DNA of 49,864 nt from NCBI GenBank assembly GCA_035549645.1, contig DASZQM010000209.1:1-49864 (forward strand), written 5' to 3'. The notes below the pieces were generated by a model. That model ran no database searches and was not told where the DNA came from. It saw only the letters and a program-made list of their open reading frames with translations. The stretch's first letter is position 1. Every line of letters starts with the position of its first letter. Below are positions 1,100 through 43,796 of the stretch, one piece after another. The stretch is from Solirubrobacterales bacterium (GTDB taxonomy: Bacteria > Actinomycetota > Thermoleophilia > Solirubrobacterales > 70-9). A program made the position numbers and the translations under genes.

Positions 1100-1119
1100 G
1101 CTGCGGGCGTGAAAGGTCG

Positions 1120-2070: not shown

Positions 2071-2075
2071 GTCGG

Positions 2076-4615: not shown

Positions 4616-4631
4616 CGGCAGGACGCCCGGC

Positions 4632-6071: not shown

Positions 6072-6088
6072 GAGCCTATACTGCCGAC

Positions 6089-6742
6089 GTGCGAATCGGC
6101 AGGGGTTTCCGCAGCGCTTCGCGCTCGACCTTGCTCAAGGTGGCACTCCCTTTTTTCGCTGCCTGGGTCGTGGTCCTCGGTATCTCGGCTTGCGGCAGCT
6201 CCTCGTCGGCGACCGAACGCACCCCCGACAACCTGGTCAGCCGGGCCGAGGTCAGGGCGCAGCCGCGCGGCAGCGTCGAGGGCACCTTCCTCGAATACTG
6301 GTCGGACCTCCAGTACCAGTCCTGGGCCGAAGTGGCGGCCTACTACGAGCCGGATTTCCGCGCCTCCGTCGGCGTTGCGGCGATCATCGGCGGCAAGAAG
6401 ATCAACGGCTCGAGCTATCCGCAGCTGAAACCGGAGATCGTCCGCGTCCACGACGACGGTGACCTCGCGACGATCAACTACTCGCTCCAGTTCATCGATG
6501 GGAGCAGGGAACTCGCCTCGACCACCTGGCGCAAGGGCGACGGCGGCTGGCAGATCGTCTACGACTCGCGGCTCGACGCCGAGCTCAAGCAGTACGCCGA
6601 AAACCGGGTCGAAATCGAAGAGAACGGGGTGCTGCCTACCAGTGCCGGCGAAGCCTCCCCGGCGGCAACGCGCGCGGGTGCGGCAGCCGCTCAAGCGCAG
6701 GCCCGCTTCCTCCAGGAAACGCTCGGCGTCAAGAGCCTCTAG
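6089..6742 (+). CDS. Putative lipoprotein (NTF2-like small domain)
   Basis: Signal peptide ending in a lipobox-like LGISAC followed by a Ser-rich linker. Protein-like composition. Confidence 0.55.
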   Translation: MRIGRGFRSASRSTLLKVALPFFAAWVVVLGISACGSSSSATERTPDNLVSRAEVRAQPRGSVEGTFLEYWSDLQYQSWAEVAAYYEPDFRASVGVAAIIGGKKINGSSYPQLKPEIVRVHDDGDLATINYSLQFIDGSRELASTTWRKGDGGWQIVYDSRLDAELKQYAENRVEIEENGVLPTSAGEASPAATRAGAAAAQAQARFLQETLGVKSL

Positions 6743-9191: not shown

Positions 9192-10369
9192 TCGGAAGAG
9201 CCCGGCGCTCCGAGCAGGCGCGAGTAGAGGGCGTCGACGTCGTCGAGCAGGCGGTCGACGGTGAACTTCGCCGCCACGTTCTCCCTGGCTCTGGCGCCCA
9301 TCGCTCGGCGCAGGTCCGGCTCGGCGGAAATCCGCGAGATCGCCGCGGCCAGGCCCCCCTCGTCACCGGGGGGCGCCAGCAGGCCAGCGCCCTCGATGAC
9401 GATGTCGGGCACGCCGCCGACCGCCGTCGCCACCAGTGGCCGCCCCGCCGCCGCCGCCTCGATCAGCGCCACCGGCGTCCCCTCGTTGTCGGAGGTGAGC
9501 AGAGCGGCATCGCTCCCGGCCGCGATCCGGGCCAGGTCACGGCGATAGCCGAGGAAGTCGACGGCGCCGGCGCAACCGAGGCTGCGGGCGAGGGCTTCCA
9601 GCTGAGGGCGGAGCAGGCCGTCGCCGACGACCGCGACCCGTGCCGGGGCGCCCTGTCGCCGCGCCCGTGCCAGCGAGCGCAGCATCAGCTCCGGCCGCTT
9701 GATCGGGACCAGGCGCCCGGTGTAGGTAAAGAGCACCTCATCCTCGGCGGTGCCGATCTCCTCGCGGAAGCTGCCGTTTGACGCCGGCCCCAAGGCCAGG
9801 AAAGGACCGAGCTCGAGCCCGAGCGGAACCACGGTGAACTTCGAGCGTGGGGCGACACCGAGCTCGACCAGCTCCTCGACGGTCGCGGCGCTGACCCCGA
9901 CCAAGCGGTCGCTTGCCTTGGCCAGCGCCCGCTCGATCGCCCTGAAGGCCCGCGTCTTCAACGGCCCGAAGTACCCCCTGAGCACGTGGCCGTGGTAGGT
10001 GTGGATCACGATCGGTCGTTCTCGCCGCGCCAGCAGCGCCGCCAGCCGCCCCAGCATCCCGGCCTTGGCGGTGTGTGTTTCGACTATGTCGGGACGGTAG
10101 GCCCGCACCAAGCGGATCAGGGCGATCAGGGCGAGGATGTCCTGCAGCGGTCGGATCTCCGGTCCCAACCGGTCGAGATAGCGGACACGGATACCGTCGA
10201 GGTCGGTGTGCTCCTCCTCGCCTGCTCCGACCCTGCCGGTCACGAGCAAGGTTTCGTAGTCCCTCCCGGCAAGCCCGCGGCTGAGCAGGGCGACGTGGTG
10301 TGCCGGTCCACCCAAATTCATTCTTGCGATTACTCTGAGCACGCGGATCGGCGGTTTGCGCGCTGCCAT
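9188..10369 (-). CDS. Glycosyltransferase family 4 (GT-B)
   Basis: N-terminal RMNLGGPAHHV motif. C-terminal NEGTPVALIEAAAAGRPLVATAVGGVPDIV signature. Confidence 0.8.
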   Translation of the reverse strand: MAARKPPIRVLRVIARMNLGGPAHHVALLSRGLAGRDYETLLVTGRVGAGEEEHTDLDGIRVRYLDRLGPEIRPLQDILALIALIRLVRAYRPDIVETHTAKAGMLGRLAALLARRERPIVIHTYHGHVLRGYFGPLKTRAFRAIERALAKASDRLVGVSAATVEELVELGVAPRSKFTVVPLGLELGPFLALGPASNGSFREEIGTAEDEVLFTYTGRLVPIKRPELMLRSLARARRQGAPARVAVVGDGLLRPQLEALARSLGCAGAVDFLGYRRDLARIAAGSDAALLTSDNEGTPVALIEAAAAGRPLVATAVGGVPDIVIEGAGLLAPPGDEGGLAAAISRISAEPDLRRAMGARARENVAAKFTVDRLLDDVDALYSRLLGAPGSSE

Positions 10370-27456: not shown

Positions 27457-27786
27457 TCAGGAGCTCGAGTAATGCGAAGAGTGCGAGGCATGAGAGGTGT
27501 GCGAGTAGTGCCCACCTCCACTGGAGGAGTAGTGCGAGTGATGGGAGTGGTGGGAATGGTGACTGTGATGGGAGTGGTGACGGGCACTTGCGGGGACTGC
27601 ATCGTCGTTTGGCAGGGCGAGGAGGGGAGCCTCGGCCGCTCCGGCGATGGGGCCGGCACTTCGAGTGATCGCCGCCTGCGCACGCCCGATGCTGAGGCCT
27701 GTATCAGCGGCTGTGGCGGTTGCGCCCTGGGGGAAGATCGCCGCCAGCGCTACTCCAAGCGGTACCAGTACCGGTCTCCGTTTCAT
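27457..27786 (-). CDS. hxsA: His-Xaa-Ser repeat precursor protein HxsA (signal peptide plus C-terminal HxS repeats)
   Basis: Signal peptide MKRRPVLVPLGVALAAIFPQGATATA. C-terminus HHSHHSHHSHHSHHSHYSSSGGGHYSHTSHASHSSHYSSS. Confidence 0.85.
   Translation of the reverse strand: MKRRPVLVPLGVALAAIFPQGATATAADTGLSIGRAQAAITRSAGPIAGAAEAPLLALPNDDAVPASARHHSHHSHHSHHSHHSHYSSSGGGHYSHTSHASHSSHYSSS
27460..27579 (-). repeat. Coding trinucleotide-period repeat encoding 11 His-Xaa-Ser triplets
   Basis: Read from the translation: HHS x5, HYS, an SSGGG spacer, then HYS HTS HAS HSS HYS. Confidence 0.85.
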
Positions 27787-29025: not shown

Positions 29026-29067
29026 TGGAGCTAGGCGGATTCGAACCGCCGACCTCCTGGGTGCGAT
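29026..29067 (-). repeat. attL-type partial tRNA-Ala copy (3' 42 nt, anticodon loop to discriminator)
   Basis: 42/42 nt identical to 43724-43765, checked base by base. Identity stops on both sides. Confidence 0.9.
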
Positions 29068-29289: not shown

Positions 29290-30186
29290 GTGGCGAGCGT
29301 CTCCGAGCTGCTCTCGATCTTCGAATCGACTGAAGACCTTGAGAAGGCCGAGGACGCGCTCGGCCAGATCGCTGCGCTGGAGCGGCCAGCGGACCTCGAG
29401 CTCGGCGAGTGCTACGACGGACTCGCCGAGGTCGCGGCTGACGCGGGGGATCTCGAGCTTGCTGTCCGGGCGCAGCGACGCGCGCTCGAGTATGGCTGCC
29501 GGGAACCCAATCTGGCTAGGCAAATGCTTGGCTGGTACCTGCTCGAAGCCGGCGATCGCGAGGAGGGCGAGGCAGTTTTCGCCGCCGCCCGGGCCGAACG
29601 CCCCGACGATCCGTGGCTCCTCTCCGCGCTCGGTGCTGCGAGGAGGGGTTCCGGTGACGACCTGGGTGCCCTGAGCGCCCTCGACGAGGCGCTCGAGCTT
29701 GCGAAGGCCGGGAGCGATTCCGCCCTGACCCGACGGCTCAGGGCGGAACGCCTGGAATGCAGGGAGGACCAGAACCTGCCACCGGACGAGGACGACCGAC
29801 TCGCGGTGTCCGCCGAACCCGCCTTTCCGGACGCTGCCACCTACGCGGTGGCCTGGTACCCGCGCAACCAGATCGCAGCCGCCCTGGAGCGCTGGCCCTC
29901 GCTCGCCGGGGATCTGGAGGATCCGGACGCCTACTGCAGGATCATCGAGGCTCGCCTGCGCGAGGTGCGGAGTGCGACCGGCCAGGTGCCGTCGGTGGCG
30001 CCGCTCGAAGTCGATGCCTTGGTTCAGTTCGCCTCTGAGCACGGGTTGGATCCCGATTCCGGTTCCGCCAGGAGCCGTTTCGCGGCCGTTCTGGGCAGCC
30101 GCGGGGAGACCGTGCCCTGGCCACCCGGCAGGAACGAGCCGTGCTGGTGCGGCTCAGGACGCAAGTACAAGCGCTGCTGCGGCTGA
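29290..30186 (+). CDS. SEC-C motif protein with a TPR-like N-terminal region
   Basis: The C-terminus PGRNEPCWCGSGRKYKRCCG is the canonical SEC-C metal-binding motif. Confidence 0.75.
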   Translation: MASVSELLSIFESTEDLEKAEDALGQIAALERPADLELGECYDGLAEVAADAGDLELAVRAQRRALEYGCREPNLARQMLGWYLLEAGDREEGEAVFAAARAERPDDPWLLSALGAARRGSGDDLGALSALDEALELAKAGSDSALTRRLRAERLECREDQNLPPDEDDRLAVSAEPAFPDAATYAVAWYPRNQIAAALERWPSLAGDLEDPDAYCRIIEARLREVRSATGQVPSVAPLEVDALVQFASEHGLDPDSGSARSRFAAVLGSRGETVPWPPGRNEPCWCGSGRKYKRCCG

Positions 30187-30260: not shown

Positions 30261-30836
30261 TCAACCTCGCCTTCCGCGACCCCGAGCAATCCCCGACTCG
30301 CGGCGAAGCGCGCTCGCCTGGCGCTTGGTCAAGCGATCGCCCTCCTCGCCTTGGTCGATCGCCTGTCCGACGAGCGCCGTCCCCAGGTGCGTCTTGTGCG
30401 CCTGGCGGATCGCATGCACCGGAGTGACGATCGCGATTCCCTCGTGCTGGGTGATCTGAGCTGCTCCCAAATCCTCGTGGTGCAGCATGTAGGCCAATGG
30501 CACGCTGCGCCGGACGCGGTGGCTGCGGGGGAGGGTGATGTGAATCTTCGCCGGGTGGACATCGCTCAGCTCATAGAGCTCCAGCGCCGTCTCGTGGGAG
30601 AGGACGCCGTGCGCCCCACGCGGCCAGAGCGTCGCCTCCATGTAAGGGTCAAGACGGCTCGCCGGTGTAAGGGGGAGGCGGTACAGACCCGTCCCGCGGC
30701 GCTCGATCTGCCCTCGCTCGGCCATGCGCACGAGGGCCATCGGGCTGATGCCCAACTCCCGCGCGTCGTCTGGCGTCACGAAGCCATACCGCTCATTGGC
30801 GACCTCGGCCAGCTGCGTGTAGGCACGTCCGGGCAT
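30261..30836 (-). CDS. AbiEi-like (type IV TA antitoxin family) transcriptional regulator
   Basis: N-terminal GFVTPDDARELGISPMALVRMAERGQIERRGTGLYRL is the AbiEi_4-type wHTH pattern. Confidence 0.7.
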   Translation of the reverse strand: MPGRAYTQLAEVANERYGFVTPDDARELGISPMALVRMAERGQIERRGTGLYRLPLTPASRLDPYMEATLWPRGAHGVLSHETALELYELSDVHPAKIHITLPRSHRVRRSVPLAYMLHHEDLGAAQITQHEGIAIVTPVHAIRQAHKTHLGTALVGQAIDQGEEGDRLTKRQASALRRESGIARGRGRRG

Positions 30837-30966: not shown

Positions 30967-31564
30967 TTGGCTATGCATGACCGACCCGACATGCGGGGAC
31001 TTGAGGCGACCGCCTACTCCCAGCACGGCTACTTCACCACGAGCCAGGCCCGTGAGCGTGGACTCAGCAGCCAGCTTCTGAGTCACTACGTGCGCGGGAA
31101 CCGGTTCGAGCGGGTGCGGCGCGGGCTCTATCGCCTACCCGGCTTTCCTCGCCCGGAAGACGACGAGATGCGGGAGAAGTGGATGGCGGTTGGCGCCGAG
31201 AAGGCCGTTCTCTCGCACCAAAGCGCGCTCGCCCTGCTCGATCTCAGCGACAACATTCCCAATGCGGTCCACCTGCTCCTCGGACGTAGATACCGCGGCC
31301 TGCGCCGTCCGGCCGGCGTCGTCATCCACACCCGCCCCGACGAGGAAGAGGTCAACACTGTCTGGCGCGAAGGGCTCCGCCTAACCTCACCGGCGCGAAC
31401 GCTCGTCGACGTAGCCGGGGAAATTCAGCCCGAGCAACTGGAGATGGCCGTGCGGGCAGGCACTCGGTCGCGGGCTGCTCACGGCGCGGGAACTCGAAGC
31501 CGAGGCACGACGGCGCGGTCGCCACGACGCACTGAGCGGTGTCCTCGCGGCGGTGACATCGTGA
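30967..31564 (+). pseudogene. AbiEi-like paralogue with a probable +1 frameshift near 31453-31457
   Basis: The N-terminal GYFTTSQARERGLSSQLLSHYVRGNRFERVRRGLYRLPGFP is AbiEi-like. After ~31455 the track frame turns into Arg/Ser/Thr-rich junk. The +1 frame instead reads QALGRGLLTARELEAEARRRGRHDALSGVLAAVTS and stops at 31562-31564. Confidence 0.6.
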
Positions 31565-31635
31565 GATACGAGAGCGCTGCCGCGTTTCGCAGGAGCATGA
31601 GCTCAGCGCCTTAGGTAGGGGTAGGATTCCGCCTA

Positions 31636-32217
31636 ATGGGACTGTTTGGTACACGGGATTCACGGCAAGCCGCCGAAACTTCGGCAGAACCAAAGCCGAT
31701 CAGTCCAGACGAGGTTCAGCTTGACGTGCTGCGCGATGTCGTTATGAGTCTTTGCTCGGCCATCGGAACGAGCAACCCACAGATCGACGCAGCCATCGCT
31801 CATCTGCGTACAGCATGTGGAATGGTCGACCCCGACAAGGCCATGGCGACGATGGGCGCCTACGACGCAGACCCAGGATACTTCGACCGCCCGGGACGCT
31901 GGCTGGCTGTTGGTGCGGCAAAGGCCAACGCGAGTGACCAGCCGGATCTCGCAGTTCTGGCATATGCGTGGATCTTTATGTGGACAACAAGCATGGAGCC
32001 CAAGTTGTCGGGCAGTAACCTGATTGTTCTAGGTCTGAATCGGACACCTAGAGATGCCGTGGAGGCATTGATCGCACAAGCAGAGATTGCCCTGCCACGG
32101 ATAGATCCCGATCAGGTGCTCGTGACAACTGGTACGCCTGAAGAGCTAACGGGTCGAATGATCGGAGCGGCACTGGAGCAGCACAAGGTTTCCCTTCAGG
32201 GCACGCCGAGCGCCTAG
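31636..32217 (+). CDS. Hypothetical protein
   Basis: Protein-like composition with lower G+C codon usage than the core genome. No family recognised. Confidence 0.5.
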   Translation: MGLFGTRDSRQAAETSAEPKPISPDEVQLDVLRDVVMSLCSAIGTSNPQIDAAIAHLRTACGMVDPDKAMATMGAYDADPGYFDRPGRWLAVGAAKANASDQPDLAVLAYAWIFMWTTSMEPKLSGSNLIVLGLNRTPRDAVEALIAQAEIALPRIDPDQVLVTTGTPEELTGRMIGAALEQHKVSLQGTPSA

Positions 32218-32302: not shown

Positions 32303-33241
32303 GTGCGTTACCGTCTCTCACTGCCGGAAAGCAATGGCGCCGAGGCAGTGCGTGGCTTCATCGACGATTGGATCGAGCAGCCAGCCCTGCGGCGGATCGT
32401 AGAGGCCGAGGGTGGGCAATGGCCATTAGGCTCACTTGAGCAGAGGGTCGATGCGCTACATGACTTCAGCGCTCGCTGGGACTTCCGTGGCGGCGTCGAG
32501 CGATTGGAGATCAACCCTTCCTCTAGTCAGGACCGCGACGAGAACCTGCTCACGGACGCGGCCGAGTTGGGAATGACGGCTGCCGATCGTCCGACTGACG
32601 ACCGATATGACCACGCGCTTGTCCTTGGGGGTACCGCCTTGGCCAGCGTCTACCGTCTGCGGCGGCTTTACGAACTGCGAGAGGACGGACTCGACATAGG
32701 CCGGACGGCAGTGCTGACCGCCCTGCGTGAAATCGGCGAGCCAGAGCTGCGGATCGTTCGCGAACGCCCCGAGATCGCAGCGGTCGTTGACCGTTCGCCG
32801 CGCACGGAGTTCGAAGTGATGACGCATTCGGTTGAGTTGTTCAGCGGATCTAGTTCTGAGGTGGAGCGCACGCCGAACGAAAACCCCCACCTGGCGTCGG
32901 CGATGGCGCGGCTCGGCGACGTGCTCGTGCTCGCCGCACCGTCAGCCGATCCTGGTCGCCGCGCGAATAGCCGTGATAACTACGACGCTTACATTGGCCA
33001 GATTGGCCCAGTGGATTCGGTTCTTGTCGTGACCAGCAGCATCTATCTGCCGTATCAGTTTTTCGTGGCCTTGCAAGCCCTTGGTTGGGAGCAGCCTCGC
33101 ACCATCGAGGCTGTCGGTTTCCCGCCCGAATGGATGCAAGGAATCCTTACTGGCCCTCAGAACATCCTTCAGGAGATCCGCAGCGCCCTTTTCGGAGCGC
33201 GCAACACACTGCAAGTACTGGCGGCCTCCGAGCCCAGGTAG
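32303..33241 (+). CDS. Hypothetical protein
   Basis: Protein-like composition over 312 aa. No family recognised with confidence. Confidence 0.5.
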   Translation: MRYRLSLPESNGAEAVRGFIDDWIEQPALRRIVEAEGGQWPLGSLEQRVDALHDFSARWDFRGGVERLEINPSSSQDRDENLLTDAAELGMTAADRPTDDRYDHALVLGGTALASVYRLRRLYELREDGLDIGRTAVLTALREIGEPELRIVRERPEIAAVVDRSPRTEFEVMTHSVELFSGSSSEVERTPNENPHLASAMARLGDVLVLAAPSADPGRRANSRDNYDAYIGQIGPVDSVLVVTSSIYLPYQFFVALQALGWEQPRTIEAVGFPPEWMQGILTGPQNILQEIRSALFGARNTLQVLAASEPR

Positions 33242-33243
33242 GT

Positions 33244-33960
33244 CTACCGACGCAAGCGGCGCTCGGCACCCCGTACCTTTCGCCGCAGCTTCCACTCGCC
33301 GTACCGTGCTCTCAACCCTATCGAGTTCGGCTCGTTCGCGAAACCGCCGTGCGTGCTTACCCCACTTCCGTCGGTGTGCAAGAGCACAAGGCGAGCCTCA
33401 CCATCTCTTCGAGCTGCCGGGCGCTTGAGGGAGAGCTCGCGCCCCCGGTGCTTCGGATGGTGCAGATGGTAGGAGATGCTGGCGTTGTAGAGGTCGACGA
33501 GACGGTAGCCAAAGCGGGCCTGCGGGCGCCCCTTTACCGGAGCATTTTCCCGCTCGAGGTATGGCAACAGAAGCGTTCCTACCCTGACGAAAATAGTGTG
33601 GTACTGCTGTAGCGCGCTGCGCAGTGCCAAGCCGTCAACGACGTATTGCGCTACGTCGTTCATTGCGCCGACCACGACCCTCGCATCGCGCTTTTGCTCG
33701 GCGCTCAGTTCGTCGAGCTCCTTCCACGTATCGAAATCGTCGTGTCCCGCCTGGGGTGCCAGCTGTTCCACCACGGATACGTGAATGGGAAAGCTCATCT
33801 GCAATCGGCTTCGTGCCTCCTGGGAGCGCACAAACGCCGCCTGAAATTGGATCGTCGCCTGCGCACGGGAGGCAGCGGTAGCAGCGCGCAGCTGCAAAAT
33901 GACGAATCCCACCCCGATCGCCGCGATCACGGCACTTGCGATCCCCATCCAGTCAGCCAT
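33244..33960 (-). CDS. Hypothetical membrane-anchored protein (one N-terminal TM helix)
   Basis: WMGIASAVIAAIGVGFVILQL looks like a TM helix, followed by a soluble domain. It lies 9 nt downstream of the SIR2-TPR gene on the same strand. Confidence 0.55.
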   Translation of the reverse strand: MADWMGIASAVIAAIGVGFVILQLRAATAASRAQATIQFQAAFVRSQEARSRLQMSFPIHVSVVEQLAPQAGHDDFDTWKELDELSAEQKRDARVVVGAMNDVAQYVVDGLALRSALQQYHTIFVRVGTLLLPYLERENAPVKGRPQARFGYRLVDLYNASISYHLHHPKHRGRELSLKRPAARRDGEARLVLLHTDGSGVSTHGGFANEPNSIGLRARYGEWKLRRKVRGAERRLRR

Positions 33961-33969
33961 CCTCGGAGC

Positions 33970-36093
33970 TCACGTCGTCATCATCCATAGAACGCGGGGC
34001 TCACCGAGCCCGGCTGGCGGATATTGGCTGTTGTTGCGGAGTTCGGATGGCAGTGCGGTCCAGGCCGGGATTGCATGTGCATCGCCGCTCAGGCCCAGGC
34101 CAATAGCGGCCTGAGCGCCAAGCCAGTGCGCCCCCCTTTCCGCAGCGAGGCGAGCGAGCTCCGCGAAACGATCACTTGCGCCAGCATTGCCGCGGAGACG
34201 ATCAAGCTCTGCGAGGCCGAGGTCGGCCCACGCGCTGGCGACCGGGCACGACGGGTTGTCGGCGACGCGACGCAGAAGCCGCTCGGCGTCATCGTGTTCG
34301 TTGCGCGCGAGGTAGACATCGGCGAGCACGAGCGCACGGTCGTCGAAGTAGCGCCCACCGAGCTCCTCCGCGTCTGAGAGATCTACGCTTGGGGAGGCTT
34401 CCTGACCGATCGCGAGCCTCACGCGGTCAGCAAGTACTCGGCCCGTGACCACGTCGGCGATCGGACCTGGCCGGCCCTCCTGCTCGAACCTGCGCATAGC
34501 GCTGTCCAATGCGTCGCGAGCGGCGTCCGGATTACGTTCGTAGCAGAGAGCGATGCCATCGAGCCAGAACCCCCAGGCCCGCCAGCGCGGTATCGCATAC
34601 CGTCCGGTTCGCTGACGGAGCTCGAACGCGTAACGGCGAGCGTCACCGAACCTCCCCTGGTAGATAGACGAACAGCCCTGATCGAGTACGGCACCTGCGT
34701 GGCGCTCGGGATCGCCGGCTGCCGAGAGTCCGGCCTCGGCAGCGTCTGCGGCCCGACGCGCTTCATCAATGCATAGCTTGTAGCGATGGCCATAGGCGAG
34801 GTAGTAGTAGTCCGTCGGTGCACCTCGGTGCTCTACTGCCCAGCGGGCGAATTCCTCCACACGGTCCCAGTTGCGTTGCTGCAGCCTCAACGCCAGCGCG
34901 CCCGTGATCAGGTAGTCACGCGCGGCTCGTGGCCGGAGGCCGTTGAGAACGCTGCGGTGGTCGGCGAGCCCTTCAACGAGCTCGGCGATGTGTCCATCGC
35001 CATAGAGGCTTCGGTTCATTGCCCAGCGGATGTGTGCTGGTAGAGAACGCACGCGCAGGTGAGCCGCGTCAGCCCGTCGCGCCGTTCTCAGGGCTGACTC
35101 ATCGGCTTGCCACTCGCCGAAGCGCTCGACCAGGCGCGCGTGAACGATCGCGGGTGGCGTTGGAATTGGCAGACGAACGTCCAGCGGAGGTCGATCGCCT
35201 TCCAGCATTTCGTCCGCGAGGCCGGGGTCGGGTGCGACCCCGGCGTCGGCGGCGAGCGTAAGGAATGCCTTCGCCGTCACTTGCCGCGGGTCCTCTGGGT
35301 CCTCAGTTCGCGGGGGAGGTACGAACGTGATCGTCGATTGAGGGAACGCTCTTTCGATTTCGCGCCGCACATCGCAGTACGGCTCGAACCAGAGGATCTG
35401 CTTCGCCGCGGCAAAGGTCTCCTCAAGGAGGCGGTAGAGGTCGGCATCAGCGCCGCGATATCCGAAGACGACCACGATTGCGCCTGCCGTGATGCTCACG
35501 AGATGGCGGATCGCATCGTTCGTGATGGGCGCCAGCAGCTCCGCGTCCGTGAATGCGAGCGTGCGCGGGTCCTCTGCGGTCCCGTGAAACTTCACGAGGC
35601 TCGCCGGTCTCGCGGAACTCAAGGGGGGGAGCACGCTTGGGCCGATGCGCCGAGCACTTCGAGACGGCACAGCTCGACCCGCACGTCGCGGCGGCTCGCC
35701 GCTCGCCGCCTCTACGCCGAGGTCGACGTTCGTCGTCCACACGGTGCCGCCGCACGCGAGAACGCGCGCCGCGACGTCGTGCACAGCGTTCGCCTCCGAG
35801 CGGCCGAGCGCAGCAGCCACCTGATCTGCAAAGGCGACGCCGAAGCGGCGCAGCGTGCCGAAGAGCACCTCAGCAGGAATCTCGGGCTCGGCAAAGCTGG
35901 GGTAACCCGACCGGCACCACCGGCCGTCGACTGGCTGCCAGCCGATGCTCCTGAGGATCCCCGCAAAGAGCTCGCTGAAGTTAGGAAGTCGGCTCGGCGG
36001 AGCCATCGACGCACCAGCGCCGAGAAAAAGCAGCCAGCGCGACGCTGGAGCGGACGCTAGCCGATCGTCGTGCGTGTTCACGATCAGCCCCAT
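33970..36093 (-). CDS. SIR2-like (SIR2_2 type) NAD-utilising domain fused to C-terminal TPR-like repeats
   Basis: Motifs LLFLGAGASMAPPSRLPNFSEL (GAGxS), VWTTNVDLG (TNxD) and LVKFHGT (catalytic His). The C-terminal ~400 aa are helical repeats rich in A/L/R with TPR-like periodicity. Confidence 0.75.
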   Translation of the reverse strand: MGLIVNTHDDRLASAPASRWLLFLGAGASMAPPSRLPNFSELFAGILRSIGWQPVDGRWCRSGYPSFAEPEIPAEVLFGTLRRFGVAFADQVAAALGRSEANAVHDVAARVLACGGTVWTTNVDLGVEAASGEPPRRAGRAVPSRSARRIGPSVLPPLSSARPASLVKFHGTAEDPRTLAFTDAELLAPITNDAIRHLVSITAGAIVVVFGYRGADADLYRLLEETFAAAKQILWFEPYCDVRREIERAFPQSTITFVPPPRTEDPEDPRQVTAKAFLTLAADAGVAPDPGLADEMLEGDRPPLDVRLPIPTPPAIVHARLVERFGEWQADESALRTARRADAAHLRVRSLPAHIRWAMNRSLYGDGHIAELVEGLADHRSVLNGLRPRAARDYLITGALALRLQQRNWDRVEEFARWAVEHRGAPTDYYYLAYGHRYKLCIDEARRAADAAEAGLSAAGDPERHAGAVLDQGCSSIYQGRFGDARRYAFELRQRTGRYAIPRWRAWGFWLDGIALCYERNPDAARDALDSAMRRFEQEGRPGPIADVVTGRVLADRVRLAIGQEASPSVDLSDAEELGGRYFDDRALVLADVYLARNEHDDAERLLRRVADNPSCPVASAWADLGLAELDRLRGNAGASDRFAELARLAAERGAHWLGAQAAIGLGLSGDAHAIPAWTALPSELRNNSQYPPAGLGEPRVLWMMTT

Positions 36094-36171: not shown

Positions 36172-36600
36172 TCAGTCGTTCAGCTCAAGTAGCTCGCATG
36201 CGGCCCGTGCGTTGATCGCCGGCGGCTTCAGCTCCTTGTTGTGATCGAGCAGGTCCTTGTCGCCGGTGACGATGGCCTCGGCCTGCGCCTCCCGAGCCAG
36301 GGCGGGAAGGTAGTCGTCCTTGGGGTCACGCAGCTCAGGGGGAACGTCGGGTGGGTCGTCAAAGGAGATGGCGATCTCCTCGATGCGAGCCACGGCCCTG
36401 CGCGCCTCGGTTGCCGTGACGCGTTCGCGGAAGTAGGGCTTGCGCAGAGCCTTGTTCACCTCGCGGAGAATCTCCGGGCAGATCGCTATCTCGAAGCGCA
36501 TTGCCTGCATCGCGCGAATGAGCTGGGCGGGCGGCGAGCCCGACCGGATCCCCGCAATCCCCGACACGAGCGTGTTGGGGTCGAGGACGAGTCGCTTCAA
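36172..36600 (-). CDS. PIN-domain toxin (VapC-like)
   Basis: LVLDPNTLVS (first acidic residue) and IVTGDKDLL (C-terminal acidic motif). 4-nt overlap with the upstream small gene. Confidence 0.8.
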   Translation of the reverse strand: MKRLVLDPNTLVSGIAGIRSGSPPAQLIRAMQAMRFEIAICPEILREVNKALRKPYFRERVTATEARRAVARIEEIAISFDDPPDVPPELRDPKDDYLPALAREAQAEAIVTGDKDLLDHNKELKPPAINARAACELLELND

Positions 36601-36926
36601 ACGTCGCCGCCGGGGGCTCGCTCCGCTCGCACCTCGCGCACGGCCTTGACCGCTTCACGCTCGATCTCGTCGGGGTCGACCCCCGCGAAGCGGGCGCCGA
36701 TCTGCTCGATCGCGTCGTCGCCCTCCTTGATCCGCACGAGCGATTCCATCAGCTCTCGCTCGCTCTTCTGCGGCTCCCGCGTGCGTAGCACCTTCAGCGT
36801 CTGGGCGTAGCGTTCGACCGCCTCCAGCGCCTCCAGCGCGACAGGCACCTGTTCGTCGGGTATGTCCTTTAGGAGCTGCTCGGCCTTCTCACGGGTCGTC
36901 ATGGGCACAGGGTACCTCGGCTGCAT
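36597..36926 (-). CDS. Putative antitoxin of the PIN toxin
   Basis: Small acidic 109-aa protein, translationally coupled upstream of the PIN gene. Confidence 0.55.
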   Translation of the reverse strand: MQPRYPVPMTTREKAEQLLKDIPDEQVPVALEALEAVERYAQTLKVLRTREPQKSERELMESLVRIKEGDDAIEQIGARFAGVDPDEIEREAVKAVREVRAERAPGGDV

Positions 36927-37324
36927 CGCGGAAATCAGACCAGACCGAACCGTCGGTTGCTCGCCAGTCGAATCTAAAAGTTTCGTTACCGGAATACACG
37001 GCGATTAGCGCGGATGCGCGGCGATTACGTAAGGCGCCGTAGGGCGACTTGACTTCTCCTGGTCAGCGGAGCTACTCCAGGGGTATGAAGATCTCGCACG
37101 CTGTTTCCCGAGTCCCCGTGCGGTGGAGACCACGGCCCGCGCACCTCCCGATGCGCCGAGGCGGACGGTCGCCGCTGCGTCCATCCCTTCGACCAAGACT
37201 GCGTTCGTCGCTTCGTCCAACCCTTCAGCTCGAAACGGGGCCGGACCGCCGTGAACGCCGATGGCAGCGCCGTTTCCCGGCTTGGCGTTTTGCCGACATC
37301 TCTACGCTGCATCTAGGTCGGGAC

Positions 37325-38425
37325 ATGAAGTGCAATCTCGCCACCTCGACCCTGCTCTCGATCGTTCCCGCCTCGTCGCTCGCGCCCTTCGCTCTCGGCG
37401 CCGTCGCTATCGCCTCCGCGCTGGCTACGCAGCGGCTCGATCCCGCAACGGCGCGCAGCGACCGGCATGGCCGGCGCTCGCGTGGCCATACCGGTGCGCG
37501 GACCGATCGCCCCGCCGAGAAGGAGGGTCGCCACCCGGCGCCAAGCGCCGCCGTCGGCCTGCCGGAGGCGACCGCCGAGATCATCGCCTCGCTGGGCGAG
37601 CATCGCGTCCTCTCCACCGAGCAGGTGAGGACGATCCATCTGCCGGGCCGCAGCCTGCGGCGCACGCAGCAGATCCTCGCCGGCATCGAGGAGGCCGGGC
37701 TGATCCACCACGTCGACACGCGGATCGCGCCACGACGGCTCTGGTTCGTCAGCGAGCGCGGTGCCGCGCTGGCCTTCGAGCTGGTCGGGTTGGAGACGCA
37801 GCCGAGGGTGCTCCAGGCCACCGATGCGGCCGGACCGCTGAGGGCGCACACCCTCGCCGTCAACGACGCCGCGATCTGCTTCCTGAAGGCGGCGCGCGAG
37901 CGCGGCGACGAATTCGGCCCGTTCTCCTGGCGCCAAGAGATCGCCCACCCCATGGGCCGCGGTCGCGGTCGTCGTCGCCGCACGCTCTTCGCAGACGCCG
38001 TCCTCACCTACCTGCGACCCGAGGACCGCGACACGGTCCTCGAGCTGCGCTTCCTTGAGCTTGACCGCGCCACGCTCTCGGTCGATCGCCTCGTTGCGGA
38101 GCTGAGTCGCTATGCCCAGCTCTACCGGGCCACCGACGCGGAAGGACAGCCGCTCTGGCGCAATCGCTATCCGGTCTTCCCGAGGGTTCTCTGCGTGCTG
38201 ACCGGCGCCTCCCGGGAAGCGCTGACCACGCGGCGCACATTCGCGTCGATGCTCCTGCGCGACCACCCGGCAATGGCGCAGGCGCGCGGCGAGGTGGCGG
38301 TCAGCTTCTGCCGCCTCGAAGACCTGCAGCGAAAGGGGCCGTTCGCGCCGATCTTCCGCGAAGTGCTCGACCCCAAACGCTCGGTTGACTGGCTCGGCAA
38401 CTCGCCCGACGACGAGGAGCGGTAG
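37325..38425 (+). CDS. Replication-relaxation family protein
   Basis: LGEHRVLSTEQVRTIHLPGRSLRRTQQILAGIEEAGLIHHV (wHTH), HTLAVNDAAICF and LELDRATLS are typical of the Replic_Relax family. The ATG at 37325 was chosen because the upstream part of the track ORF is Arg/Pro-rich junk. Confidence 0.65.
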   Translation: MKCNLATSTLLSIVPASSLAPFALGAVAIASALATQRLDPATARSDRHGRRSRGHTGARTDRPAEKEGRHPAPSAAVGLPEATAEIIASLGEHRVLSTEQVRTIHLPGRSLRRTQQILAGIEEAGLIHHVDTRIAPRRLWFVSERGAALAFELVGLETQPRVLQATDAAGPLRAHTLAVNDAAICFLKAARERGDEFGPFSWRQEIAHPMGRGRGRRRRTLFADAVLTYLRPEDRDTVLELRFLELDRATLSVDRLVAELSRYAQLYRATDAEGQPLWRNRYPVFPRVLCVLTGASREALTTRRTFASMLLRDHPAMAQARGEVAVSFCRLEDLQRKGPFAPIFREVLDPKRSVDWLGNSPDDEER

Positions 38426-38644
38426 GCATGCGTCCCGGGCCAGCTGGCTCGCTTCCTGGGCGCAGCGGAGCTATCTTCGTCGGACAGGAAACAGACGGCC
38501 GGGCGGCGCGCAAACGCCCCCGGCCCGGCGTCGAAGGTTCGAGCTTCGGCGCGATGTCCAGCCTAGAGGCGAGCGGATCTCCGCCGCCACTTGGCGACCG
38601 CGCCTGCCACTCCTTCGGTGCTCACGGACCAGGAGGTGACAGAA

Positions 38645-39943
38645 GTGGCTCGTAGATCGGAAGGCCAGGTGGTTGAGCGCCACTGGAAGAGCGGGCGCGG
38701 TTACGCACTGCGCTTCCGCGCCTACGGGGAGCGCCAGTACCTGACGCTGGGTTCGGAGACCGAGGGCTGGAACCGCAACCGCGCCGAGGAGGAGCTGGCG
38801 AACGTCATGGCCGACGTGCGGCGCGGCATTTGGGTCCCCCCGACGCGGCGACCTCGCAGAGCCAGGGCAGCGGAGGAGGCATCCGGCACGATGCCGACCT
38901 TCGGCTCCTTTGCCCGGAGCCTGATGGCGGCCCGCAGGAGCGAGATGAGCGAGGCGAACTACGCCTACAAGGAGAACGCGCTCGCGCACGTCGTGCCCTA
39001 CTTCGGGAGCTGGCCACTTCACGAGATCGACATCCAGGCGGTCGATGCCTTCCGCGGCCACATGGTCGAGGTCTCCGAGGCCCGGCGCCGCGCGAGGGAG
39101 AGCGGCCAGTCGATGCGCAATGGCTGGGGACAGGCGCTGCGGCCTCTCTCGCCGGCGACGATCAACAAGACGATCGACACCTTGCAGTGGGTGCTCTCGG
39201 TGGCGGTGGAGTACCGATACATCACCGAGAACCCCGCGGCTGGCCGCCGACGCCGCCTCAGGGCGATGAGGCCCGCTCCGGTGCATCTGGACTCGGTCGA
39301 GCAGATCGCGACGCTGCTGGAGGCGGCGGGCCAACTCGACCGCGACAAGCGCTGGCTCACGAACGATCGCCGGCCGATCATCGCCACGCTGCTCCTCGCC
39401 GGACCTCGGGCAGGCGAGCTGTGCAACCTGCGCTGGCGCGACGTCGACCTCGCCAACGGCCGCATCTCGATCGGCCGCTCCAAGACCCAGGCCGGACTAC
39501 GGGAGATCGTCCTGCTGCCCCTCTTGCGTGACGAACTCTCCGCTCACAAGGCGTGCGCCTACCGCAGCGGCGCTGACGATCCGGTGTTCCCCACCGGGAC
39601 CGGCGGCTACCGCGACAAGGACAACCTCCGCAACCGCATCCTCGCCTCGGCCGTTAAGCGGGCCGACGAGCTGCTCGAAGAGCGCGGCCATACGCCGCTG
39701 CCACGGGGAGTCACGCCGCACAAGCTGCGCCATACCTTCGCCTCGATCCTGATCGCCACCGGCGAGGACCCGGCCTCGGTGATGGCCCAGCTTGGCCACA
39801 CCGACCCGAAGTTCACCCTGCGCGTCTACACGCACATCATGCGCCGCGACCCGGCCGAGCGGGCGCGACTGAAGGCACTGGTCGGCGGCGATTCGATCGA
39901 GTTGGCGGAGCTGGCGACGCCTGAGCGAGACGTGCGACGATGA
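38645..39943 (+). CDS. int: Tyrosine-type site-specific integrase
   Basis: Motifs LAGPRAGELCNLRW (Arg I), HKLRHTFASIL (HxxR) and LGHTDPKFTLRVYTH (catalytic Tyr). The GTG at 38645 is preceded by AGGAGG (38631-38636). Confidence 0.9.
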   Translation: MARRSEGQVVERHWKSGRGYALRFRAYGERQYLTLGSETEGWNRNRAEEELANVMADVRRGIWVPPTRRPRRARAAEEASGTMPTFGSFARSLMAARRSEMSEANYAYKENALAHVVPYFGSWPLHEIDIQAVDAFRGHMVEVSEARRRARESGQSMRNGWGQALRPLSPATINKTIDTLQWVLSVAVEYRYITENPAAGRRRRLRAMRPAPVHLDSVEQIATLLEAAGQLDRDKRWLTNDRRPIIATLLLAGPRAGELCNLRWRDVDLANGRISIGRSKTQAGLREIVLLPLLRDELSAHKACAYRSGADDPVFPTGTGGYRDKDNLRNRILASAVKRADELLEERGHTPLPRGVTPHKLRHTFASILIATGEDPASVMAQLGHTDPKFTLRVYTHIMRRDPAERARLKALVGGDSIELAELATPERDVRR

Positions 39944-40302: not shown

Positions 40303-41457
40303 TCAGTCGTTGAGGTCGTCTGGTTGATAACAGTTGAGCAACTCGAAAGCGAAGGCGGCTGCGTTGGCGGCGGCAATCTTCGGTGCCCCAGCCTTTCGGG
40401 CGTCGTCCTTGTCGTGACAGAGGTCTGAGATTCCGCGAACAACAATGCCTGCGACCTTCTCGCTTTGATCGAGGGCAGCGAGGAAGCCGTGGCCCTCCAT
40501 CTCCACTGCAACGGCCTTGTCGAGGTTCTTGCGTAGGCGCTCATAGACAGTCGAGTCACTATCGCGAATCAGCTTTTCGCCTGCCGCGATGGGCTCGACG
40601 ACAACATCCGGTGGCTGGCCGTTGATCCGCTCCGCGGAGCTTCGTTGGCGCCAGGCATTCCCCAGGGCGACGTGGTGCGCTTGTTGGCGCAGCGAATGGG
40701 CGGCACCAGCGGATTTCTGGCGCTGCTGGAACTCAGCGCGTTCCACCCCCCACTCGTAGTTATAGATCTCGGTTGCCGCAACAACATCCCCCCACTTCAT
40801 GCCCTGCTCAGAAAGGCCGCCGGCGATTCCCACGAAGAGGGCGACGGAAGGCTCGAAGCGAGCGATCGCGCGCTCTGCCGCCGCGGCGGCGTTGCCGCCC
40901 CCCGCTTCGGTGATGGCAGCGGCGATCCGCCAGTCGACGTGATGTCCGCGGAAGCTGCCGGTCTTGTAAATCGTGCCCGACTCCCGCTCGTCGCTTACGT
41001 CCTTGAGATGGGTAATGACTGCCGCGAGCTCCAGGGGCAAGGCCGTGAGGATGACGGCAGAGATGGTGGGAGGGTTTGGATTCGCCTCGGCAAGGCCGCG
41101 GGCGGTCATTCTGAAGCGCCGTGCAGGTTTCCATTGATCGAGACGCTCGAATTCAGCACTGCAACCCTTGCAATCAATCGACTCCTCGGCCTCAAGTTCA
41201 GCCTCGGCGGTTTCGCGGAGGAGCGCCAACCCACATGACGGGCAACAGAGGACTTCCTCCGCGGCGAGAAAATCGAATTGTGGATCGGCGGCCAGGTCGA
41301 GTAGGCGCTGCGCCCGTGAAGCATCAATTTCAGCGATATCAGCGACCTGCTTGGCGTCGAACCGATCGTCGGAGCCGCGCCGATAGAGATACGAGATGAA
41401 AGACGTGACGGTGTCAACGCCCTGAACGGCCGCTTGCTCAGCAAAGGCGTCGAACAT
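40303..41457 (-). CDS. Zn-ribbon plus PNP_UDP_1 (purine nucleoside phosphorylase / nucleosidase superfamily) protein, a candidate immune effector
   Basis: N-terminal CCPSCG...CKGC (CxxC...CxxC). The C-terminal domain has FVGIAGGLS, VAVEMEGHGF and VRGISD motifs, typical of MTA/SAH-nucleosidase-like folds. Confidence 0.75.
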   Translation of the reverse strand: MFDAFAEQAAVQGVDTVTSFISYLYRRGSDDRFDAKQVADIAEIDASRAQRLLDLAADPQFDFLAAEEVLCCPSCGLALLRETAEAELEAEESIDCKGCSAEFERLDQWKPARRFRMTARGLAEANPNPPTISAVILTALPLELAAVITHLKDVSDERESGTIYKTGSFRGHHVDWRIAAAITEAGGGNAAAAAERAIARFEPSVALFVGIAGGLSEQGMKWGDVVAATEIYNYEWGVERAEFQQRQKSAGAAHSLRQQAHHVALGNAWRQRSSAERINGQPPDVVVEPIAAGEKLIRDSDSTVYERLRKNLDKAVAVEMEGHGFLAALDQSEKVAGIVVRGISDLCHDKDDARKAGAPKIAAANAAAFAFELLNCYQPDDLND

Positions 41458-42487
41458 TGCGCAAAACGTATTCGACCGACTGGCGGTCGCTGGGAGCCAT
41501 GAAATGGATGCGTGAGTCGCCAGCGAGGATGACCGTGTGCAGCTCGTCCTCTAGGGGGTTGCCTCCGTCGGAAATTCGGGTCTGATCCAGCCAGAAAACG
41601 TTGCCGAGACGGCCACGGCTGACCTTCGCGAGCGAGTTGACCGCTTCATCAACCGCCTTCTCTCCCGCCGCGGCGGTATGCGCATCTGCGCTCGAAACGT
41701 CAATCTCGCGCCCGCCAGCGCTCTGCATTCCGACCCTGATCGAGCGAGTGAGTGCGCCGTTGCCGTCGCGCTCTTTCTGGGCGAGAGCTTGGATGGCTTT
41801 GCGCAGATCGAGCCGAGTAAAGGAGCCCTTGAAGCCGAGCCAGTCCTGAATCAGCTCACCGAAGCGCCCCTCCGCCAACTCATAGTCGTAACCGCGATGG
41901 GCTTTAGAGATGTGAAGGGTCGCCTGAGAGTTAGTGAGGTCCCAGCGCAAGGTGAAAAGACCACGTCCGGTACGGCGGGTGTAGGCGTGGTACTCAACCG
42001 GCGTGCCATCGATTTCGCCCTCGTGATCGTAATCGGGGACCCGCTCGGTGTACCCACGCGACTCCACTGCACGGATCTCGACTGAATCGTCAGCAACAAC
42101 GATTGTTGCGAGGGTCAGCTCCGGAGGGATGATCAGCTGTGGAGGTTCGTCGAGAATGTCGCCCAAGCCAGCCTGCCTGAGACGTTTACTGACCTTGGCT
42201 TTGTCACGCCACGCTGCAGTGACTTCGTCGGCAATGTCATAGAGATACACGTGTTGGTTGCCCCACGGCTCGACCTCATCGAGATACGCGGCGATATCGG
42301 CAGCGGTTACGTCTTCGTCGCGAGCAGCCTCGTTGAGACGGCGTCGAAGCTCCCGCTTTGGGCCAGAGCGGGGAAGCTCGAGGCGACGGAGCAACTCGCG
42401 AATACGGTCGCTGCGTAGCGAGAGCAGATAGTCAATTAGCTCGCGAAGATCGTCTGGCAATTTTTGAGGCACAGCTCCTACCCCCAC
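41438..42487 (-). CDS. SAP-motif N-terminal domain protein with a C-terminal domain of unknown function
   Basis: IRELLRRLELPRSGPKRELRRRLNEA fits the SAP helix-extended-helix motif. The rest matches nothing I recognise. It overlaps the downstream PNP gene by 20 nt. An AT-rich promoter-like region lies upstream at 42490-42560. Confidence 0.6.
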   Translation of the reverse strand: MGVGAVPQKLPDDLRELIDYLLSLRSDRIRELLRRLELPRSGPKRELRRRLNEAARDEDVTAADIAAYLDEVEPWGNQHVYLYDIADEVTAAWRDKAKVSKRLRQAGLGDILDEPPQLIIPPELTLATIVVADDSVEIRAVESRGYTERVPDYDHEGEIDGTPVEYHAYTRRTGRGLFTLRWDLTNSQATLHISKAHRGYDYELAEGRFGELIQDWLGFKGSFTRLDLRKAIQALAQKERDGNGALTRSIRVGMQSAGGREIDVSSADAHTAAAGEKAVDEAVNSLAKVSRGRLGNVFWLDQTRISDGGNPLEDELHTVILAGDSRIHFMAPSDRQSVEYVLRNVRRLC

Positions 42488-43723: not shown

Positions 43724-43796
43724 TGGAGCTAGGCGGATTCGAACCGCCGACCTCCTGGGTGCGATCCAAGTGCTCTGCCAACTGAGCTATAGCCCC
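43724..43796 (-). tRNA. tRNA-Ala (anticodon CGC)
   Basis: Folded by hand from GGGGCTATAGCTCAGTTGGCAGAGCACTTGGATCGCACCCAGGAGGTCGGCGGTTCGAATCCGCCTAGCTCCA. It has a 7-bp acceptor stem with the G3:U70 Ala identity pair, anticodon loop AT-CGC-AC and a GGTTCGAATCC T-arm. No encoded CCA. Confidence 0.9.

Follow-up and report, generated by a model that had tools for sequence, protein, structure and literature searches.

SIR2-TPR and Rv3785_N genes in an integrative island of a Solirubrobacterales bacterium: a hybrid cassette and a candidate for an undescribed variant of SIR2-based defence

We have analyzed 49,864 nucleotides of contig DASZQM010000209.1 of a Solirubrobacterales bacterium (hereafter the window, meaning this whole stretch), and specifically a cassette of three genes located at 32303..36093 (Table 1). 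The largest codes for SIR2-TPR, a protein of 707 aa with an N-terminal SIR2 domain and a C-terminal region of tetratricopeptide-like (TPR-like) repeats. It is followed on the same strand, after 9 nt, by the gene of a 238-aa single-pass membrane protein, TM238, and this one converges on a third gene that codes for a putative member of the Rv3785_N family, RvN. An earlier note on this DNA had described the first two open reading frames, the SIR2_2-type domain with the motifs GAGxS, TNxD and KFHG, the repeats and the single membrane segment downstream, and all of these are borne out by the data given below. It had also interpreted the two genes as a NAD-depleting defence module. Of that interpretation, the intact SIR2-TPR outside any named system stands and TM238 as its partner does not, the convergent RvN having been overlooked. 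Our analysis indicates that two widespread two-gene modules, SIR2-TPR with RvN (module A) and TM238 with RvN (module B), which share the RvN component type, have been joined into one hybrid in the cassette.

Table 1. Position of the cassette features and of the other genes and sites of the island in the window.
Feature	Position	Strand	Basis or remark
RvN, 312 aa, predicted YdcF/DUF218-like Rossmann fold	32303..33241	+	convergent with TM238
Junction of the convergent RvN and TM238 stop codons, 2 nt	33242..33243		TAG-GT-CTA
TM238, 238 aa, N-terminally anchored single-pass membrane protein	33244..33960	-
Transmembrane anchor of TM238, residues ~4-24	33889..33951	-	hydropathy
Spacer GCTCCGAGG, 9 nt between SIR2-TPR stop (TGA) and TM238 start (ATG)	33961..33969	-	also swap breakpoint
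SIR2-TPR, 707 aa	33970..36093	-	open reading frame list; Pfam SIR2_2; AlphaFold2; Foldseek
SIR2_2 NADase-type domain of SIR2-TPR, N-terminal, residues ~15-300
GAGAS, NAD-binding glycine-rich loop, residues 25-29	36007..36021	-
TTNVD, catalytic-site Asn and Asp, residues 120-124	35722..35736	-
KFHG, with putative catalytic His170, residues 168-171	35581..35592	-
TPR-like alpha-solenoid, residues ~315-690	34024..35151	-	AlphaFold2 and Foldseek
Conserved extreme C-terminal tail PRVLWMMTT, residues 699-707	33973..33999	-	32-member alignment
attL-like repeat copy, 42 nt	29026..29067		100% identical to 43724-43765
TPR protein ending in SEC-C zinc motif	29290-30186	+	just inside left end of island
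Two divergent AbiEi_4-type antitoxin/regulator genes	30261-30836 and 30967-31614	- and +
PIN_3 toxin (TIGR00305) and overlapping 109-aa putative antitoxin	36172-36600 and 36597-36926	-	78 nt upstream of SIR2-TPR
Replic_Relax (replication-relaxation) protein	37049..38425	+	Pfam 9.9e-23; also in locus L034
Tyrosine integrase	38591..39943	+	Pfam Phage_integrase 1.5e-19
PNP_UDP_1 phosphorylase-superfamily protein	40303-41457	-	PADLOC 'Effector PN-superfamily' 8e-21, PDC-M60C 1e-16
349-aa gene, upstream of and overlapping PNP_UDP_1 gene	41438-42487	-	weak SAP-domain match
tRNA-Ala(CGC)	43724..43796	-	ARAGORN; its 3' 42 nt (43724-43765) are the attR-like repeat copy

The Pfam model SIR2_2 (PF13289) matched residues 117-236 of SIR2-TPR with 29.1 bits (gathering score 24.5), and the same family is the precomputed annotation of most of its homologues. 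Across 32 aligned full-length homologues, with identities of 35-84%, the residues T120, N122, D124, K168, H170 and G171 were invariant, and G25, A26, G27 and S29 were at least 90% conserved. When the family profile was compared with the PDB, these motifs aligned with TTNYD/KFHG and TTNFD/KIHG of solved SIR2 chains (9v0g_E, 8jkz_A), and GAGAS aligned with the LGAG motif of such chains. The nearest characterised relatives (SIR2-APAZ, ThsA, KomC and DSR2) hydrolyse NAD+, and by this kinship SIR2-TPR is a putative NADase. The AlphaFold2 model (predicted local distance difference test score, pLDDT, 90.8; predicted template modelling score, pTM, 0.87) consists of an alpha/beta SIR2 domain and then some 20 helices that span residues 315 to ~690. 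Foldseek related this C-terminal region with probability 1.0 to CTPR, the TPR of OGT, TPR subunits of the APC/C, LGN and Rap/NprR, and the profile search against the PDB found the TPR domain of LpoA at E 1e-3. No Pfam TPR model was above threshold on the window protein; by its fold the region is of TPR type, a superhelix of paired antiparallel helices like those of solved TPR proteins. At the extreme C-terminus, the tail PRVLWMxT was kept in all 32 aligned homologues, with L702 and W703 invariant. It was modelled at pLDDT >90 with no secondary structure, and either the TPR groove or the partner may be its docking site. The homologues form 53 clusters, mainly from uncultured Solirubrobacterales and other Actinomycetota. 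In five loci (L001, at 8001-10089, L006, L015, L018 and L026) the reading frame was broken into two or three, either by pseudogene formation or by indel errors of the assemblies.

TM238 has one hydrophobic segment, at residues 4-22, with a Kyte-Doolittle value of 2.28 (window of 19 residues), no other segment exceeding 1.6, and this arrangement is conserved across the family. There are no Lys or Arg residues before the segment and two or three after it, and this charge bias therefore indicates an anchor with the N-terminus out and the C-terminus in. The predicted cytoplasmic domain of ~210 aa is highly conserved, with the invariant polar motifs NDVAQYVxDG, SALQQYH and KH.GR. The window protein scored 17.2 bits against Pfam DUF4760, below the cut-off of 25, and weak sub-threshold matches to this family were found in 13 of 33 TM238 family members (best E 5e-4), so that the two would be distantly similar at most. 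DUF4760 has, as TM238, an N-terminal transmembrane helix and a helical domain, although TM238 is ~100 aa longer than the 141 positions of the model. We know of no function for DUF4760. The TM238 homologues make up 97 clusters, and the ratios of nonsynonymous to synonymous change (dN/dS) were 0.15-0.35 for TM238 and 0.17-0.27 for SIR2-TPR. Given these values and the numbers of homologue clusters, both are real genes rather than chance frames of high-GC DNA.

Scans of the three proteins with PADLOC, NCBIfam and PHROGs gave nothing usable. RvN had no match either in the local Pfam library, a copy that does not contain the model PF27209 (Rv3785_N). However, PF27209 is precomputed on homologues 82-91% identical to the window protein and on ~110 others, and we provisionally place RvN in this family because its close homologues carry the annotation. 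The namesake, Rv3785, is a chromosomal gene of Mycobacterium tuberculosis. RvN homologues form at least 131 clusters, with dN/dS of 0.12-0.22. The AlphaFold2 model (pLDDT 95.2, pTM 0.92) has a three-layer alpha/beta/alpha Rossmann-like domain and a helical N-terminal part. The best meaningful Foldseek match in the PDB was Escherichia coli YdcF (3ca8; probability 1.0, template modelling (TM) scores 0.39/0.46, E 5e-3), and in the viral library BFVD a YdcF-family protein ranked first (TMt 0.55, E 1.4e-3). SRP54, which occupied the first rank in the PDB, was disregarded for its TM of 0.26 and root-mean-square deviation of 16 Å. A non-significant similarity of the RvN profile to SARM1-TIR in the PDB (E 0.3-0.6) was judged to be due to chance, the fold search having given YdcF. 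Pfam DUF218 was the family most commonly matched among RvN members, yet below threshold (3 of 43, at E >= 0.054), and the motifs LVLGG and of VTSSxYxPYQ type resemble, by eye, what we take to be DUF218 motifs. RvN differs from YdcF and DUF218 by an extra helical subdomain of ~90 residues at the N-terminus and by having its own Pfam family. A set of polar residues was invariant in all gene contexts (R62, E66, R67, Y102, G109, G110, R118, R142, E148, E169, R220, D225, T244, Y248, Q290 and E291), which indicates a single conserved pocket or active site.

In order to find out which genes accompany SIR2-TPR, we fetched 33 loci with relatives of this gene from genome and metagenome collections. A TM238 homologue was found in none of them, nor in two further loci, L042 and L043, where SIR2-TPR is 61-62% identical to that of the window. 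The earlier note had made its reading depend on conservation of the membrane protein gene with SIR2-TPR; it is so conserved only in the clade of ~80% identity or more to which the window belongs (described below), and even there the spacing of 9 nt is not. The constant neighbour is instead RvN. A co-directional RvN gene, coding for ~305 aa, was located directly downstream of SIR2-TPR in 20 of the 33 loci and in L042 and L043, 22 in total, and in the last two it overlaps SIR2-TPR by 19 nt. This is module A, in which the two genes often overlap. In the RvN tree the SIR2-co-directional partners form one clade, and the divergences of RvN and SIR2-TPR were correlated (r = 0.88, over 28 non-independent pairs). 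RvN was missing downstream of SIR2-TPR in L009, in L016 and in two very distant matches. In L009, downstream of a SIR2-TPR homologue of 47% identity, lies a convergent gene for a multi-pass membrane protein of 245 aa (4134-4871, minus strand), unrelated to TM238 and with no Pfam match. In L016 (8312-12201, plus strand) the homologue is followed by proteins of 431 and 865 aa that look, by eye, like a metallo-beta-lactamase fold and an E2/E1/JAB-type fusion, respectively.

The complementary arrangement, module B, was found in L036-L039. Here TM238 homologues (51-72% identity) are located tail-to-tail with RvN and no SIR2-TPR is present beside them, the neighbours being AbiE, SMC/AAA_15, Mrr, TIR, ApeA-HEPN and recombinase genes. 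In the window only 2 nt separate the two stop codons, and therefore there is no space for a terminator in between. In L034-L039, L044 and L045 the distance between the stop codons is -4 to +6 nt, an abutting layout that is unusual and strictly conserved, and the two transcripts must therefore overlap. The family sizes are also similar, with 97 TM238 clusters against ~95 RvN clusters above ~45% identity, and ~30 pairs of TM238 and RvN clusters had longest contigs of equal size (counted by hand from the two tables).

The order found in the window, SIR2-TPR, TM238 and convergent RvN, was restricted to the clade of ~80% identity or more, that is, the window itself, L034, L035, L044 and L045. In the sister loci L001 and L007 the SIR2-TPR protein is 78-84% identical to that of the window and an ordinary co-directional RvN follows. 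When we aligned the DNA of the window, L034, L001 and L007, homology extended through all four sequences as far as the stop codon of SIR2-TPR. Immediately after the TGA there were two types, one in the window and L034 and the other in L001 and L007. In the RvN tree the window RvN nests inside the TM238-paired clade, beside that of L036 (a locus without SIR2), and its identity to the SIR2-type partners is only 28-32%. The breakpoint and the tree together indicate that in this lineage a whole TM238/RvN pair took the place of the original RvN. TM238 thus came in recently as a co-passenger of RvN, and it does not characterise the SIR2-TPR family as such.

Since the exchange, the trio has been kept together in four flanking contexts (window/L034, L035, L044 and L045). 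Synonymous divergence was similar among the three genes, and the dN/dS values (0.12-0.35 across the trio) indicate that purifying selection maintains all of them. The gaps between SIR2-TPR and TM238 in the five loci of the clade were 9, 9, 128, 128 and 93 nt, the 9-nt ones being those of the window and L034. A scan for promoters and terminators between 31.4 and 36.4 kb gave nothing above shuffled controls. A 193-aa open reading frame upstream of RvN (31636..32217) was considered as a further member of the cassette and discarded, tblastn having found no copy in L001-L041. In L045 a second and different SIR2_2 protein (572 aa; 748-2466, plus strand) is encoded 2.5 kb upstream of the trio.

RvN is found well beyond these two modules. 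An exhaustive profile search recovered 1971 representative proteins at E <= 1e-3. Among the 150 best matches about a dozen were fusions of ~1200 aa, with an N-terminal region followed by a STAND NTPase, TPR repeats and RvN at the C-terminus (P0293, P0295, P0306, P0309, P0319, P0329, P0336, P0362, P0379, P0381 and P0395), and P0310, and probably P0291 and P0313, resemble fragments of this type. The N-terminal region may be a transglutaminase-like Cys/His peptidase, as judged by eye from one sequence. Homology of these regions to SIR2-TPR or TM238 was excluded, as there were no hidden Markov model matches even at E <= 10. In P0312, RvN is located at the N-terminus of a NPHP3-type STAND NTPase. 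In Actinoplanes the RvN gene precedes the gene of an AAA_16-WD40 protein. Plasmid searches found distant relatives only. One of them is in the conjugative plasmid pYYL1.1 of Rhodococcus ruber (L046, 4523-8673), where a CHAT protease gene, an RvN-like gene and a convergent gene for a 570-aa TPR protein, 18 nt away, are found together; a NYN-domain gene is located nearby in this cultured organism. RvN thus recurs beside TPR repeats or fused after them, and with unrelated types of effector (SIR2, membrane protein, peptidases). The SIR2-TPR, TM238 and RvN families are all patchily distributed and mainly metagenomic.

The whole cassette is contained in an island of ~14.7 kb inserted at a tRNA-Ala gene. 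The 3' end of the tRNA is repeated at the other end of the island as a perfect direct repeat of 42 nt and a tyrosine integrase is encoded within, which together identify it as an integrative island. Its G+C content is 0.60-0.67, lower than in the flanks (mostly 0.68-0.73), and near the integrase it rises to ~0.70. The cassette lies in a mobile defence-type island, the other genes of which are given in Table 1. The PIN_3 toxin-antitoxin pair was ruled out as part of the cassette, as it is common to L034 only. No AbiEii toxin gene was noticed beside the AbiEi_4 genes, without a search dedicated to it. The TPR/SEC-C protein had weak PADLOC matches (PDC-S12, E1-E2), to the SEC-C motif only. The PNP_UDP_1 gene and the overlapping 349-aa gene probably are a separate candidate conflict system within the island. 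Upstream of the island, at 27475-27579, there is an imperfect tandem repeat with a period of 9 nt (GGAGTGGTG-like, five overlapping copies).

To explain these patterns we propose that RvN is a common upstream component that controls the interchangeable effectors SIR2-TPR and TM238, in a defence acting by NAD+ depletion, a proposal to which we give about an even chance of being right. RvN would sense the infection, or would make or bind a small phosphate-bearing ligand at the invariant Arg/Glu-rich pocket. The TPR domain of SIR2-TPR would receive this input, and the activated protein would deplete NAD+ and lead to abortive infection, while TM238 would act as a second effector at the level of the membrane. 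The NADase activity, the part played in defence, the order in which the components signal and whatever TM238 does are thus inferred. In the window lineage RvN was replaced by a paralogue only ~30% identical and SIR2-TPR is still under selection; a coupling through a ligand and a conserved pocket therefore fits better than a co-evolved interface. A wider proposal, which we put forward only tentatively and consider somewhat doubtful, is that RvN may be the core of an unrecognised and large modular immune family with interchangeable effectors, present in Actinomycetota and beyond, with ~2000 representatives. RvN would then be a conserved nucleotide-type enzyme or receptor, perhaps acting via a new small-molecule signal, and would parallel the CD-NTase of CBASS or the TIR of Thoeris. 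The effectors would be the SIR2-TPR NADase, TM238, and CHAT or transglutaminase-like peptidase-STAND proteins, and the window would be a natural hybrid of stacked effectors in which one RvN serves two of them.

It is also conceivable, although we regard it as unlikely, that two independent systems lie side by side, a self-contained SIR2-TPR with repeats that bind a phage protein in the manner of DSR2, and a TM238/RvN pair that SIR2-TPR does not use. The position of the window RvN in the TM-paired clade, far from the SIR2-type partners, would be expected then, as would the loci with SIR2-TPR and no RvN, the variable gap between SIR2-TPR and TM238, and the full-length structural alignments with DSR2, which follows the same logic of SIR2 plus alpha-solenoid. 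But module A is consistent over its 22 loci, with overlapping genes and co-diverging partners, which argues that SIR2-TPR normally needs RvN. Besides, where SIR2-TPR had lost its own RvN, it was found intact and subject to purifying selection only with another RvN ~0.7 kb away, and the trio moves jointly from context to context. Less probable still would be a relationship of the toxin/antitoxin kind, in which RvN keeps SIR2-TPR, TM238 and the peptidase-STAND proteins off until infection inactivates it, and the abutting genes give antisense control of TM238. Of each pair RvN is indeed the better conserved, and it is always found alongside effector-type genes, the overlap of transcripts is forced by the tail-to-tail stop codons, and the same island contains PIN_3 toxin-antitoxin and AbiEi genes. 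However, that a single fold neutralises three unrelated types of effector by direct binding is improbable, the exchange for a ~30%-identical paralogue would probably have freed a lethal NADase, and the location of RvN in cis with the sensor end of STAND fusions is atypical for antitoxins.

The gene neighbourhoods largely refute what the earlier note had proposed, a dedicated two-gene module of SIR2-TPR and TM238 that depletes NAD with TM238 as specific partner, and we now hold it to be very unlikely. The two genes do share the strand, with the 9-nt gap of the window and L034, and they are kept together and co-diverge in the five loci of the close clade. Against this, TM238 is absent from all the other SIR2-TPR loci analyzed, its own conserved neighbour is RvN, also in loci without SIR2, and the sister loci L001 and L007 have RvN and not TM238 after the stop codon. 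The least credible explanation, for which we see hardly any chance, dispenses with defence altogether: RvN, as a DUF218/ElyC-like protein, and TM238 would act in the metabolism of envelope precursors, and SIR2-TPR would be a regulatory deacylase or ADP-ribosyltransferase. In the literature a link to envelope biogenesis is given for DUF218 proteins (ElyC and SanA, for example), Rv3785 is a chromosomal gene for which the papers found describe no function, and a divergent TM238 is paired with a gene of the YfiH/PgeF family. The contexts, however, are mobile and rich in defence genes (integrase, AbiE, TIR, ApeA, PIN, and fusions to STAND NTPases and peptidases), the patchy and mostly metagenomic distribution is not what this explanation would suggest, and the SIR2 domain is nearest to defence sirtuins of NADase type.

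Several observations weigh against the control of SIR2-TPR and TM238 by RvN that we favour. SIR2-TPR may work alone, as suggested by L009 and L016, in which no RvN is found nearby. The co-divergence of RvN and SIR2-TPR could be plain co-inheritance. As the gap between SIR2-TPR and TM238 varies between 9 and 128 nt, their co-translation is not conserved. The most divergent TM238 (P0138, 42% identity, in L048, one locus seen in two samples) has in place of RvN a Cu-oxidase_4/YfiH-PgeF gene, again convergent and overlapping (5001-5771, plus strand, and 5740-6531, minus strand). The position of RvN in the fusions is ambiguous as to its role, since it appears at the C-terminus, the sensor side, in most STAND fusions and at the N-terminus, the effector side, in P0312. 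The similarity to YdcF seems real at the level of the fold but weak (E 5e-3 and 1.4e-3, TM 0.39-0.55). The SIR2-TPR of the window had no PADLOC match even at E <= 10, probably an effect of the HMMER speed filter. Finally, we found no literature on the SIR2-TPR, TM238 or RvN families, and the functions proposed here come from sequences and models. Our searches likewise returned no functional account of Rv3785, DUF4760, PF27209/YdcF-like proteins, YdcF together with SIR2, or the PDB entry 9V0G. A mention of 'DUF218' in a TIR preprint turned out to be DUF2188, and an eLife 2020 paper on conflict systems mentions neither SIR2 nor YdcF.

Taken together, SIR2-TPR with RvN is apparently a real and undescribed variant of SIR2-based defence, with RvN as the key partner. 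Depletion of NAD+ by SIR2 proteins is an established route by which bacteria abort phage infection. To our knowledge, every characterised SIR2 system is defined by its switch, be it a signal made by a TIR protein, a prokaryotic Argonaute (pAgo), HerA, a STAND NTPase or the binding of a tail-tube protein. If RvN is a sensor or a signal maker, it would be a new input route for SIR2 immunity and would open a first way into the function of the Rv3785_N family and of DUF218-like folds. The swap, so precisely bounded, clearly illustrates how defence systems exchange modules in nature, and it predicts cross-compatibility between the modules.

Compared with the known systems, SIR2-TPR belongs to Pfam SIR2_2 and not to DSR1, DSR2, ThsA, Avs5, SPARSA or SIR2-HerA, in agreement with the earlier note, which could not assign the SIR2 plus TPR architecture with a membrane partner to a named system and had seen no NTPase/STAND, HerA, TIR or Argonaute partner. 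We found none of these in SIR2-TPR or in the window genes scanned (~29.3-42.5 kb). Specifically, no NTPase or P-loop was detected in SIR2-TPR by Pfam, NCBIfam or PADLOC, and in the model the SIR2 domain is directly followed by the repeats; no HerA-type match was found among its neighbours; and a TIR domain, which a ThsB gene of Thoeris would have, was missing also from the gene tables of the four SIR2-TPR loci with precomputed Pfam annotation. Relaxed PADLOC searches matched 30 of the 32 relatives to the models of pAgo-associated SIR2 (Aga_SIR2, best E 3e-10), which cover the SIR2 core only, and 8 of the 32 to ThsA, again in the SIR2 core only (E >= 7.6e-4). In PADLOC, a DSR1 model matched neither the window protein nor any of the 32 relatives at E <= 10, and the DSR2 model did not match the window protein and matched one relative at E 0.07. 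In the profile search against the PDB the order was SIR2-APAZ (8in8/8jkz, 3e-6), KomC (1e-3) and ThsA (3e-3). In sequence as in structure (Foldseek 8y80_E, E 2.6e-4), the nearest SIR2 domain is thus that of the SIR2-APAZ protein of SPARSA, over the core only (residues ~80-240, or ~70-245 of the 524-558 positions of the Aga_SIR2 profiles). SIR2-TPR, however, has TPR in place of APAZ at the C-terminus, and no gene for an Argonaute was found near it in the window. With Avs5 (AVAST type 5) it shares a SIR2 effector and a TPR sensor but not the STAND NTPase domain between them, and RvN itself occurs fused to STAND-TPR proteins.

The two systems that most resemble the cassette in their organization are Thoeris and DSR2. 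Thoeris couples a SIR2 NADase to a Rossmann-like ligand-binding module, and combines a constant upstream gene with alternative effectors. Its types have been described as one upstream gene with SIR2 or membrane-protein effectors, and in the effector ThsI a TPR domain was proposed as the receiver of the small molecule (10.64898/2025.12.03.692087). In ThsA a SLOG domain is fused to SIR2, whereas SIR2-TPR has the TPR solenoid in that place and the Rossmann-like RvN, which is not a SLOG, is a separate protein. DSR2, as SIR2-TPR, has an N-terminal SIR2 domain of NADase type and a long alpha-solenoid in a single polypeptide, and the Foldseek matches to it (8ykf, 8wkt, 8z18) run over the full length of SIR2-TPR (E ~1e-3) with low TM-scores (0.25/0.19). 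DSR2 is a single-gene system. It is larger (~1000 aa against 707 aa), its MID and CTD differ from the TPR-like repeats found here, and it stands alone, whereas the SIR2-TPR family has RvN as a conserved second gene in 22 loci. By analogy with DSR2, the repeats may sense and the SIR2 domain may deplete NAD+. SIR2-TPR may thus be most like DSR2 in the logic of its domains and like Thoeris in that of its operon.

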